From assembly GCA_029856525.1 (NCBI GenBank), contig JAHQXC010000039.1, forward strand, positions 1 through 11,727: a DNA stretch of 11,727 nt. Reading direction: 5' to 3'. Shown piece by piece: positions 2,758 to 6,727 of this stretch. The first letter of the stretch is position 1. Each line of letters opens with the position of its first letter. The DNA comes from Candidatus Odinarchaeia archaeon. Lineage in GTDB: Archaea; Asgardarchaeota; Odinarchaeia; Odinarchaeales; Odinarchaeaceae. The notes under the pieces are model-generated. The model made no database searches and was not told where the DNA came from. It saw only the letters and a program-made list of their open reading frames with translations. Made by a program: the position numbers and the translations under genes.

Positions 2758-3813
2758 TTGACTAGGGAGCTTAAAGTATATGAAGTCGACGAGTTTGATA
2801 AATGCCCTAACTGCGGGGGTGAGATTTATCGGGGTCGTTTGAATTGTAGATGGGGGATGATTTTCTACTATCGTTTAAAACATGATCTTCTACTTGATAA
2901 GCATGGGCGTCCTATTATTTTTGAAGAAAACGTTCGTATCGGAAACCCTGTTAAAAGCCGATTCGATCATGCTGCTATATGCAGGAATTGCCTTTTTTTA
3001 TTTTTTAAAGCTATTAATTACGATCCGCTTAGAAAAGGTTTTGAAGAACGTTTTAACAAGACGCGAAAAGAACTTTACAAGAAGGCGGTGGAGGAGTCTA
3101 AGAAGCCATTAAATTTTGATAAATGCCCGGTTTGCGGTAATAAAATAGATAAAGGGTATTTATGTGATAATCCTCCTTCAGGCTGCACACCCGGGTTAGT
3201 CTTCTATATGCAGCTGGATAAGCCTATCGGAGGGAGAAAAGAGGAGCCGATTGTTGTAGCCCAAGACTTTCTAGGACATTTCTATGAGGCATATTTCTGT
3301 GATACCTGTTTCACAGCTATCGGTAGAATAGAGAAATTCCTCCCCTTCGCCGATGATTTCTGGGATCGTTTTGAAGCCCCTTCTAAATCAACAGTTATTA
3401 AATTAGAACGCCGGCTTGAAAGGTTAGATCAGTTAGAAAATCTTCAAAACCCTGAAAGAGGGGTAGACGCGGGTTTATCAGAGGCTAGAAAAGAATTTGA
3501 AGAGTATGAGAATCCGATTGAAGAGGATTCTGAAGACCGCTTATTAGAATCTGTTCTCGATGAAATCTCAATAGGCGGCGGAGACATCCCTGAATTTAAA
3601 GTTGAAGATTCAAATGAACGTGTTAAATCAAATGATATCGGTGTCGATGGTCTTGAACTGGAGCCTAAACTACCCTACGAGTATCTTCCTTCAGTGAAAT
3701 CCTGCCTTGAGCCACCTGACAGGTTTCAGTTCTGTCCTAATTGCGGTGTCGAGAACAGTTCTAAGCAAAATGTATGCCGGAAATGCGGGACTGAATTGCC
3801 CTCAATCAAATAA
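2758..3813 (+). CDS. Multi-zinc-ribbon protein: two DUF6487-like CPxCG...CxxC modules, acidic linker, C-terminal double zinc ribbon
   Basis: FDKCPNCGG...AICRNC and FDKCPVCGN...YFCDTC repeats; E/D-rich linker; C-terminal CPNCGVENSSKQNVCRKCG; TTG start with a strong SD. Confidence 0.8.
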   Translation: MTRELKVYEVDEFDKCPNCGGEIYRGRLNCRWGMIFYYRLKHDLLLDKHGRPIIFEENVRIGNPVKSRFDHAAICRNCLFLFFKAINYDPLRKGFEERFNKTRKELYKKAVEESKKPLNFDKCPVCGNKIDKGYLCDNPPSGCTPGLVFYMQLDKPIGGRKEEPIVVAQDFLGHFYEAYFCDTCFTAIGRIEKFLPFADDFWDRFEAPSKSTVIKLERRLERLDQLENLQNPERGVDAGLSEARKEFEEYENPIEEDSEDRLLESVLDEISIGGGDIPEFKVEDSNERVKSNDIGVDGLELEPKLPYEYLPSVKSCLEPPDRFQFCPNCGVENSSKQNVCRKCGTELPSIK

Positions 3814-3996
3814 TTGTGCATATATCTCATAATTTTTTTCAACCGCTTCCATAATTTTTTTACCAATATTCGAATTCTTTTTAATAATCGTGTAACCTTT
3901 TTGATTTATAGTAGCATCGAAAATATGGTTGCCTTCTATATAGAATTTTAGACGTGTATTCGAGAGGTCAGGTCTCACATATATTCGAATTTTTTT
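3802..3996 (-). CDS. C-terminal domain of the PINA ATPase, encoded in the -1 frame after an A9 run
   Basis: Frame is bounded by TAA (3997-3999) and TGA (3802-3804) and reads KKIRIYVRPDLSNTRLKFYIEGNHIFDATINQKGYTIIKKNSNIGKKIMEAVEKNYEIYAQLFD. This resembles the PINA-family C-terminal pattern v.iyv....lFtATv.kkG.i.ikK.S.iGk.l..A. Confidence 0.7.
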   Translation of the reverse strand, partial: KKIRIYVRPDLSNTRLKFYIEGNHIFDATINQKGYTIIKKNSNIGKKIMEAVEKNYEIYAQLFD

Positions 3997-5423
3997 TTAA
4001 GGGGTTTAACTTTAACTTTAATGTTATCTTTCACTTTCTGAGAGCTGCGGCTTGTTTTCAACTCTTTATCTGAGATTAAAGGTATGACGACAACCTCTTC
4101 GCCGTAACTGTATACCTCATATTCTAAACGGTTTGTTTCGAAGTCTCTAACTTCTATAACAGGTCTAGCTAAATCCGCTTGAACCATTCCGGTGGGAATT
4201 TTAACAGTTGTACTTATAGCGTACACTTTTCTAATCTCGCCTTCTTCTATAAATATTATAGTGTCTAGAACTCTGCTAATCAATCCTAATTCAATTCTAC
4301 CTATAAATCTTTGAAGAGCGTCTATCGGTTGGCTTGCATGAACAACGCCGATCATGTTAACACCGCTGAATCTTAAATCAGCGTATATTTTGAAATCATT
4401 AGTTTTACGCATTTCATCGTATATCACGTAGTCAGGTCTTACAAGAAGAAGTATATCAGCTGTTTTCTCCATGCTATCGCTCAACGGTGAGTATTGAGTT
4501 ATATCTGGGCCTACTTGTAAGTCTCTCGGGCTCTCCATGGTCTTCACAATCTTACCTTTACTAGCATAGTATTCAGCTAAAGCCGCGCTGAATGTGCTTT
4601 TACCAGCTCCAGGCGGTCCGGCTATTAAAATTCCTTCAGCTCTTTTTTCAAGCCTTGACTCTAATTTACTAGATAAGTTATACGCTTTCAGATCGACTTT
4701 AACTATAGGCTTCACCGCTGTTATCTCTAAGCCGTCTGAAAAAGGCGGTCTAGCTATAACTATTCTCATATTCCCTAACTGGATAACCGTTGCTGCGGGT
4801 TCATCGATTTCGATAAAACTATCCTTCTCTTTTAAAGCTCTTTCATATATTTGTAAAGCTATATCTCTGAGAAGCTCACCTTCCACAGGTTTATCAGATA
4901 ATTCAACCAGTCTCCAATCACCAGGACTCCCCTTCTTAGCCTTCGGTGGAACCCCCTCTCTTAGATGAACTGACATCGTATCGCTGTCGAAAAATTTTTC
5001 AAGATCTAGCTTTAATGCTTTACCCGGTTTAGCTACATAATTAACTTTAACCCCTTTAATCTCAGCTATATCCGCTTGAACTCTATCACTCGTATATAAT
5101 TCAGCTGAATTCTCTTCAGCGCATTTAATTATTATCTCATCTAGTTCCCCGCTAGGTCCAAGCTTTACTTCCTCTAAAGTCGGTCTAGCCCCAACTATTT
5201 CGACTAATATGTCGCCTTTAGTTGAAAGCTCTCTTAGTTTTTTTAATTCAACTAATCCAGCGAAGCCCGCTGGTTTATGTAAATTCGCCTGGTTCTCTAT
5301 TTCAGCTATAACAGCGTTTGGAATAAGAATCTTACAGTTTTTTAATTCCCCTTTCTCTATGGTTTGCGAAATATATCCGTCTATTATGATGCTAGTATCA
5401 GGTACTATTTTTCTAAAATTCAA
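3975..5423 (-). CDS. PINc/VapC-family ATPase (PINA; PIN domain plus PilT-like ATPase), apparently frameshifted near the 3' end
   Basis: PIN start IVPDTSIIIDG...IPNAVIAEIENQAN; Walker A GPPGAGKSTF; TMESPRDLQV; Walker B YVIYDEMR; GVVHASQPIDALQRFIGR. The TTG start overlaps the hisS stop by 4 nt. Confidence 0.92.
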   Translation of the reverse strand: MNFRKIVPDTSIIIDGYISQTIEKGELKNCKILIPNAVIAEIENQANLHKPAGFAGLVELKKLRELSTKGDILVEIVGARPTLEEVKLGPSGELDEIIIKCAEENSAELYTSDRVQADIAEIKGVKVNYVAKPGKALKLDLEKFFDSDTMSVHLREGVPPKAKKGSPGDWRLVELSDKPVEGELLRDIALQIYERALKEKDSFIEIDEPAATVIQLGNMRIVIARPPFSDGLEITAVKPIVKVDLKAYNLSSKLESRLEKRAEGILIAGPPGAGKSTFSAALAEYYASKGKIVKTMESPRDLQVGPDITQYSPLSDSMEKTADILLLVRPDYVIYDEMRKTNDFKIYADLRFSGVNMIGVVHASQPIDALQRFIGRIELGLISRVLDTIIFIEEGEIRKVYAISTTVKIPTGMVQADLARPVIEVRDFETNRLEYEVYSYGEEVVVIPLISDKELKTSRSSQKVKDNIKVKVKPLKKKFEYM

Positions 5424-6727
5424 TACCGGTTCACCACAGGTGTGAGTATACTACTAATCTCCTCAACATTTATTGTATGCTGTTCCCCGCTATCAAGTTT
5501 TTTAACAGTGACTTTATTCTCTTTCTCCTCTTTTTCCCCTATAAATATTATAATACTGTAATTATTACTAACCGCATAGGAGAGTGCTCTTTTAATGTTT
5601 CTTCTCAAAACATCGACTTCTGTTTTATACCCTAATTCTCTAATTTTACTAGCTGTAATAAAACAGGCGGGTATTTGCCTCGGAGTTAACGGGGTTATTA
5701 GTATTTTTTTCTCAAGTGGTTTTCTGAATAAGTTTCTCTCATCCATAGCGATTATTAAACGATCTATACCCGCTGCAAAGCCTACTGCAGGTGTATGCTC
5801 TCCGCCGAATAATTCTACAAGCTTATCATATCTGCCACCGCCGCCGACTGCTATGTCAAGTCCTTCGACAAATATTTCGAAGATGAGCCCTGTATAGTAT
5901 TCTAACCCCCGCGCGAGGCTCATATCCACTTCTATTTTTTTAAAAATATCTAATTTTGATAACAACTGGAGTATTATAGTAAACTTCTCAACTTCTCCTA
6001 ATACTTCAGGATACTCTGATAATAGATTATTTAACTGGTTTATTATCGTAGTATACTCTTTTCCCTTTAAATTTAATATATTATAAAATAATTTTACCGC
6101 GTTCTCTGGAATATTATTCTCTTTCATAATTTCCTCTATTTTACCCATCTCTCTCTTATCTAATAAACCTAGTATTGTATCTTGTAATTCGTCAGGAATT
6201 TTTATAACACTGAAAAAGCTTCTAAGCACGCCTATATGCCCTATTTTTATTTTAAACTCTGTGAAACCGAGCTTCCCCATTAGATCATATGCGATGTTAA
6301 GGATTTCAATATCGCTCTCAGGGTAGTCTGAGCCGAATAACTCGAACCCTGCTTGCCAGAACTCTCTATATCTCCCTCTCTGAGGGTTATCATACCTGTA
6401 ACAGGTGCCTATATACCCTAATCTTACAGGTTTAGGCGCGCTTCTCATCAAGTTTTCTATATATAATCTAGCTATAGGAGCGGTCATTTCAGGTCTTAAA
6501 GCTAAAAGCCTCCCTCCTTTATCTTCGAATACAAACATTTTCTCCCTTATCTCCGCGCCGGCTTTAGCTGCTACCAGATCAAAAAACTCAACTATAGGTG
6601 TGGATACTTCATCATAATTATACTTATAATATAATTCTCTAACTATGCTGTTAACGTAGTTTAACCTCCACCTGTCTTCTTTTAAGTAGTCTCTCATTCC
6701 TCTAACCGTTCTAAACATTTTACTCAA
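5420..6727 (-). CDS. hisS: Histidyl-tRNA synthetase
   Basis: VRGMRDY; LALRPEMTAPIAR; YRYDNPQRGRYREFWQAGFE (class II motif 2); LARGLEYYTG; GGGGRYDKL; C-terminal anticodon-binding domain; TTG start with GGTGG SD. Confidence 0.98.
   Translation of the reverse strand: MSKMFRTVRGMRDYLKEDRWRLNYVNSIVRELYYKYNYDEVSTPIVEFFDLVAAKAGAEIREKMFVFEDKGGRLLALRPEMTAPIARLYIENLMRSAPKPVRLGYIGTCYRYDNPQRGRYREFWQAGFELFGSDYPESDIEILNIAYDLMGKLGFTEFKIKIGHIGVLRSFFSVIKIPDELQDTILGLLDKREMGKIEEIMKENNIPENAVKLFYNILNLKGKEYTTIINQLNNLLSEYPEVLGEVEKFTIILQLLSKLDIFKKIEVDMSLARGLEYYTGLIFEIFVEGLDIAVGGGGRYDKLVELFGGEHTPAVGFAAGIDRLIIAMDERNLFRKPLEKKILITPLTPRQIPACFITASKIRELGYKTEVDVLRRNIKRALSYAVSNNYSIIIFIGEKEEKENKVTVKKLDSGEQHTINVEEISSILTPVVNRY

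Follow-up and report, generated by a model that had tools for sequence, protein, structure and literature searches.

The one programmed −1 frameshift established for a cellular gene in Archaea is that of fucA1, which encodes the alpha-L-fucosidase of Sulfolobus solfataricus (PMC1616953, PMC8211752). The fucA1 split is confined to two strains, its relatives are full-length with an A stretch that differs by one base, and the split gene still gives 5-10% full-length enzyme (PMC8211752). Frameshifted genes can also be rescued by slippage on poly(A), as at the A9 tract of Thermus dnaX and in the poly(A) genes of endosymbionts (reviewed in PMC5009743). Here we analyse a comparable interruption in a PINA/PRK13764-type ATPase gene of a Candidatus Odinarchaeia archaeon (GCA_029856525.1). 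The gene lies on contig JAHQXC010000039.1, which was analysed over its whole length of 11,727 nucleotides (nt) and is called the window below. It has probably suffered a real, recent and lineage-specific deletion of one base, in a run of nine A's (A9) or no more than 4 nt away from it, about 60 codons before the end of the gene.

PINA of Sulfolobus islandicus (SisPINA; PDB 5F4H and 5YWW) is a Holliday-junction branch-migration ATPase, and the Odinarchaeal protein resembles it in its architecture of PIN, C1, ATPase and C3 regions. The C-terminal ~70 residues of SisPINA form a KH-type domain, which binds Hjm and Hjc and regulates hexamer assembly (PMC6061704). PINA is dispensable in Sulfolobus acidocaldarius, where its deletion causes cold sensitivity (PMC8775617).

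The locus shares with fucA1 the use of frames 0 and −1, a short overlap between them, an A-rich heptamer (A AAA AAT in fucA1, A AAA AAA here) and a strain-restricted split among full-length relatives. By contrast, fucA1 has rare codons on its flanks and a putative stem-loop, and experiments in vivo and in vitro have established the full-length enzyme, whereas the ATPase gene lacks a predicted structure, may be missing a base outside the run and is known from DNA alone. As in the poly(A) cases, a sense-strand A run, here of nine bases, lies directly at the frameshift, and one extra A in the mRNA would restore the frame. Those cases are bacterial and backed by cDNA heterogeneity, whereas the ATPase case was read from the DNA. 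The Odinarchaeal split adds one more to the strain-specific frameshifts at A-rich slippery sites and is an ordinary event.

The interrupted frame and its C-terminal domain

Read in frame 0, the ATPase open reading frame (ORF; 3975..5423, minus strand) encodes 482 amino acids (aa) with a PIN domain, a PilT/T2SSE-like ATPase and a C3 region. On the minus strand it ends with CTT (4001-3999), AAA AAA AAA (3998-3990), TTC GAA TAT ATG and the premature stop TGA (3977-3975). The run itself (3990..3998, minus strand; T9 on the plus strand) is exactly nine bases long. Upstream the −1 frame is closed by a TAA (3997..3999, minus strand), the 5' limit for any productive shift. From there it is open across 3802..3996 (minus strand), for 64 codons plus a TGA at 3804-3802, and its end is shared with the final 12 nt of a convergent gene (3802-3813). 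A productive shift is therefore confined to the 19 nt between the two stops (3978-3996). The premature stop after A9, the −1 frame open to 3802 and the 12-nt overlap had all been described in the original prediction, and the coordinates bear them out.

The heptamer A AAA AAA (3996-3990) fits the slippery pattern X XXY YYZ, as had been claimed, and lies wholly within 3996-3978. After a shift here, reading continues ATT CGA ATA TAT GTG (IRIYV). At nine bases, the run at the frame junction is also as long as a homopolymeric A/T run at a transcriptional slippage site is expected to be (about nine or more). Joining the two frames gives a product of ~539 aa, in line with the ~540 aa predicted and with the intact relatives, which are annotated at 539-542 aa.

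The 482-aa ORF matches the NCBIfam model PRK13764 (NF010335; PINc/VapC family ATPase) over profile positions 4-473 of 613 with 718 bits, against a cut-off of 340. Pfam places a PIN domain (PF01850, E 2.9e-8) at residues 6-121 and a T2SSE domain (PF00437, E 3.7e-6) at residues 252-373, and the translation contains the Walker A motif GPPGAGKST. The crenarchaeal PINA equivalog model (NF053733) scores 475 bits, under its cut-off of 800. By the NCBI criterion the protein is thus a PINA homologue rather than an equivalog, as judged from these sequence matches. Residues 9-450 of a 91%-identical congener protein align to residues 7-436 of SisPINA 5f4h (E 1e-121). The gene is single-copy, with no second copy in the genome.

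What follows the frameshift is the family's C-terminal domain. The 63-aa −1 translation matches PRK13764 positions 553-611 of 613 (NCBIfam profile, E 3.5e-7) and shows 79% identity to the C-terminal end of the closest protein among the congeners. This domain, which PRK13764-type proteins carry in frame, sits here in the −1 frame; it is in frame in all relatives examined. The original prediction had called it a PINA C-terminal domain. It is indeed the C-terminal domain of the family, but the protein fits the PRK13764 type and falls below the PINA equivalog cut-off.

An AlphaFold2 model of the domain (3805-3993, minus strand; 49-sequence alignment) reached a predicted local distance difference test (pLDDT) of 96.7 and has the order beta-beta-beta-beta-alpha-beta. 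Foldseek returned no match to this model in the PDB at E <=0.001 (best E 0.04). The best match in VIA-align wide had a Z of 4.7, to parts of unrelated beta-sandwiches, and no KH entry was among the matches listed. The KH domain of SisPINA comprises three helices and three strands and differs from the predicted beta4-alpha-beta of the Odinarchaeal domain, to which it is not alignable by sequence. In sequence, 5f4h/5yww can be aligned only as far as chain residue 436, which leaves the SisPINA KH domain outside the alignment. Asgard members of the family (~540 aa) have the PRK13764 C-terminal domain alone after the ATPase, without the canonical KH domain PF00013, which many euryarchaeal members (~600 aa) add. 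Judged by profile positions, the euryarchaeal KH would precede the C-terminal domain. The latter is conserved and, in the model, well folded, and it closes PRK13764-type proteins.

Presence in the DNA and absence from relatives

The genome bin comprises 1.32 Mb in 127 contigs, with 93% completeness and 38.5% G+C, and the sole sequencing run containing the sequence is a sediment metagenome. We compared the region with a Logan contig of 2,194 nt, built by a different assembler from the probable source run. It covers 3300-4700 with no differences and no gaps, at a mean k-mer depth of 19.3. A census was also made of the 956 homopolymer runs in the genome (A/T of at least 7 or G/C of at least 6), flagging as a junction any run flanked on both sides by 45 or more open codons, with a different frame on each side. 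Of 29 junctions flagged, the 12 top-ranked were inspected and the ATPase junction was the one proven split gene; most of the 12 had an ATG at the upstream stop, as at ordinary operon junctions. Two flags without a nearby start (contigs C110 and C82) were gene boundaries, PriL/PriS and AcsV-like/MoaD, and were rejected as split genes. The PriL/PriS layout is identical in all three congeners described below. Error-prone assembly was rejected on the same census, in which no other gene was split at a homopolymer run. Given the identical Logan contig and the lack of other homopolymer splits, an assembly artefact is unlikely, and the dominant genotype very probably carries the frameshift in its DNA.

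The genome is strongly depleted in long A/T runs. There are 2010 runs of 6, 638 of 7, 84 of 8, four of 9 and none of ten or more. Of the A8/T8 runs, 69 of 84 lie inside intact ORFs of at least 100 codons. The ATPase A9 is the only A9/T9 run inside a long ORF, the other three being intergenic. Each congener has between 4 and 13 A9 runs, and G001 and G003 each have one run of at least ten.

The gene was found in 25 of the 30 related genomes searched. In the 19 relatives whose match covers nearly the whole query the frame is open for 542-666 codons. Three same-genus Odinarchaeota genomes (G001-G003; 85-91% identity) served as the closest comparison. All three have one continuous frame of 551-552 codons, reading through the junction as ...KVKVKPLKK(N/T)FRIYVRPD(F/L)SNRRLKFY.... 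A search of 5.8 billion proteins returned full-length homologues of 528-546 aa from Odinarchaeia and from Baldr-, Jord- and Freyarchaeia. There the 482-aa form was a one-member cluster on one contig. One other 482-aa match sits on a 1.6-kb contig, and we take it to have probably been cut by the contig end. Nothing nearer than 91% identity appeared in that search besides the window's own protein, and no second population was found. Another run of the same sample and a run of the same study contained next to none of the stretch; the few pieces there were less than 90% alike and belonged to other organisms.

The split is thus found in none of the three congeners and none of about 20 further Asgard homologues. 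The comparison of orthologues proposed in the original prediction as a check for a conserved split gave a negative answer for all relatives compared. This lack of conservation argues against an evolved programmed frameshift. The prediction had also expected relatives with A10 if the split were an artefact. The congeners instead carry A8 followed by TTTT AGA, or an interrupted run, and a test that relies on A10 in relatives is therefore not literally applicable.

In the DNA alignment the window is one base short. Its junction reads CTT A9 TTC -GA ATA TAT GTG, against CTT A8 TTTT AGA ATA TAT GT(C/A) in G001 and G002 and CTG AAG AAA ACT TTC AGA ATA TAC GTG in G003. The run in the congeners is thus A8, AAGAAAAA-like or absent, and a change from AAT to AAA, judged against the congeners, gave the window its A9. 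We counted substitutions by hand reading of the alignment of the window with G001-G003. A gap after TTC, where the A of Arg AGA would be lost, restores KKKFRIYV and requires two substitutions relative to G001/G002 and three relative to G003. A gap inside the run, from an A10 ancestor, gives KKKIRIYV with CGA for Arg and requires three and six, respectively. The least-substitution placement is therefore TTC|GA (3985..3989, minus strand), opposite the TT(T/C) AGA ATA of the congeners. Parsimony would favour this gap after TTC, while the mutational mechanism would favour a gap in the run because slippage is far more frequent in long runs.

The sequence beyond the shift has not decayed. No stops or further indels occur across the 64 codons of the −1 frame, in a genome of 38.5% G+C. 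Compared with G001, the ratio of non-synonymous to synonymous divergence (dN/dS) is 0.10 over the 60 codons after the shift and 0.05 over the upstream part. For the same C-terminal segment, pairs of intact congeners gave 0.13-0.22. Synonymous divergence (dS) between the window and the congeners is about 1, near saturation. The changes assigned to the window branch within the segment are six synonymous and seven non-synonymous, mostly conservative (F/L, V/I twice, L/V). The ratio on this branch is not poorer than on those leading to intact relatives. The segment is thus under purifying selection similar to that in intact relatives, as would fit a young lesion. With 64 open codons free of indels and a dN/dS of 0.10, it cannot be an old pseudogene. 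As the segment has not drifted, it must either have been put out of frame recently or still be translated.

Mutation, rescue or artefact

Taken together, these results lead us to infer a mutation rather than a programmed signal, and the likely products follow from it. One base would have been lost recently in the single PINA/PRK13764-type gene of an Odinarchaeota population. Standard decoding would then yield a protein of 482 aa with PIN, ATPase and C3 regions but without the 60-residue C-terminal domain. Any 539-aa protein would arise only through unselected slippage at A9, with RNA polymerase adding an A or the ribosome slipping by −1. Since PINA is dispensable in S. acidocaldarius, damage to the ATPase gene could be tolerated. 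By analogy with the Sulfolobus work, loss of the C-terminal domain would be expected to impair partner binding. The original prediction had weighed recoding against a sequencing error or a recent indel. The recent indel is the part that finds support, while a conserved programmed frameshift is rejected and an assembly artefact is unlikely.

Several observations weigh against a simple recent deletion. Continued translation of the C-terminal piece would account for the absence of decay just as well. The fucA1 split is also strain-specific with full-length relatives, and non-conservation alone is therefore no proof against expression. Contigs drop minority variants, and a mixture of A9 and A10 or a rare consensus error could still underlie the junction. 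Furthermore, the sole coding A9 of the genome lies no more than 4 nt from the sole homopolymer-associated frameshift detected, a coincidence that leaves room for the run as a mutational or a rescue site.

Bacterial RNA polymerases are known to slip on runs of nine A's. We know of no measurement of slippage by an archaeal RNA polymerase at A9. By analogy with fucA1, leaky full-length expression would be plausible here. That it amounts to a rescue, in which A10 transcripts or a ribosomal −1 slip supply a useful full-length share and selection keeps the domain as may happen in fucA1, is possible but in our view unlikely. A valid heptamer entirely inside the 19-nt productive interval, the unique coding A9 created by AAT to AAA and a downstream frame with a dN/dS of 0.10 and no stops or indels all agree with such a rescue, as does the fucA1 precedent, 5-10% efficient and likewise strain-specific (PMC8211752). 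However, no stimulatory structure was found 5-9 nt downstream. Folded at 37 °C with pseudoknots left out, whereas relatives come from hot habitats, the downstream 53 nt had a minimum free energy (MFE) of -4.5 kcal/mol (z -0.09). Under the same limits the downstream 93 nt reached an MFE of -11.5 kcal/mol (z -1.0). A hairpin AUUCGA...UCGAAU was rejected as a stimulator, being no better than shuffled sequence. Neither a Shine-Dalgarno-like element upstream of the run nor a rare-codon element was seen. Moreover, the arrangement occurs in none of more than 20 relatives, and a young mutation explains the lack of decay equally well. The narrower proposal that A9 acts as a 'saviour' slippage site, the frameshift being tolerated because enough full-length ATPase is supplied, is a little less likely still.

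An error in the consensus, with a true gene that is intact (A10-TTCGA or A9-TTC AGA) and one base lost in sequencing, is less likely again. Indel errors typically fall in homopolymers, the bin is a 127-contig metagenome whose probable source sample alone holds the sequence, and the perfectly preserved downstream frame would be expected of an intact gene. This has to be set against the second assembler, which gave the identical sequence from the reads at ~19x depth, and against the other 955 runs, which split no gene even though 69 A8/T8 runs lie in intact ORFs. An A10 would in addition be the only run of that length in the genome. Gene fission, in which a C-terminal polypeptide of 58 aa is re-initiated at a GTG in the −1 frame (3976..3978, minus strand) and acts in trans with the 482-aa ATPase, seems to us highly improbable. 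Genes in this genome are usually coupled through a 4-nt overlap of start and stop (TTGA between hisS and the ATPase gene, ATGA elsewhere), and the GTG overlaps the frame-0 stop in the same way (GTGA, 3978-3975); the C-terminal domain is also predicted to fold alone, at the pLDDT given above. Yet the GTG is simply an inherited codon, for the Val of RIYV, with GTC, GTA and GTG as its counterparts in the congeners; it lacks the GGTGA-like motif that precedes real internal starts here, and starting at it would remove the first beta-strand (model residues 2-5, IRIY). No split homologue was present among hits of 265-844 aa, a range that leaves out shorter stand-alone forms, which were not searched.

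A recent one-base deletion remains our preferred reading and has a direct consequence for annotation: a frameshift should be recorded for the gene, with no separate hypothetical protein entered for the 58-aa downstream ORF. Were A9 instead a saviour site, Asgard archaea would gain their first documented case of recoding and Archaea only their second cellular −1 event; one isoform would have the partner-binding C-terminal domain and the other would lack it. If restoration of the frame were shown, the gene would place a case of −1 recoding in the lineage nearest to eukaryotes and provide a natural truncation series for probing the C-terminal domain of PRK13764-type proteins.

Neighbouring genes and the start of PriS

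Upstream of the ATPase gene lies hisS, encoding histidine-tRNA ligase (5420..6727, minus strand; NCBIfam TIGR00442, 379 bits, cut-off 287). The ATPase start, TTG at 5423, overlaps the hisS TGA (TTGA), and a GGTGA at 5435-5431 stands 7 nt before the TTG. The two genes are clearly a Shine-Dalgarno-led, translationally coupled operon pair. The pair is conserved in all three congeners, each with a hisS ORF of 435 aa upstream of the ATPase gene.

The convergent gene (2758..3813, plus strand) encodes a multi-zinc-ribbon protein of 351 aa, with Pfam matches to Zn_Ribbon_1 and DUF6487. Besides several CxxC pairs, it contains two DUF6487-like stretches, a middle part that is acidic and of low complexity, and a zinc ribbon at the C-terminus.

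A further observation concerns PriS, the small subunit of DNA primase, at the PriL/PriS boundary flagged in the census (contig C110, ~5390-5500). The A run at this boundary is not conserved, and there is therefore no homopolymer effect. No ATG, GTG or TTG occurs across the first ~33 conserved codons of PriS (KKI(D/N)EKTRIFLRNKYQEYY...). Position 2 of the NCBIfam PriS model aligns to residue 4 of the stop-to-stop frame, so that the family's Met1 falls on a conserved ATA. A PriL-PriS fusion by a +1 shift is less likely than initiation at this codon. This ATA, which overlaps the stop of PriL, follows a conserved GGTGA at a distance of 7 nt. The layout is common to all four Odinarchaeum genomes, with the first Met even further downstream in G003. 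PriS is thus likely to use a non-canonical ATA start, as judged from the alignment.

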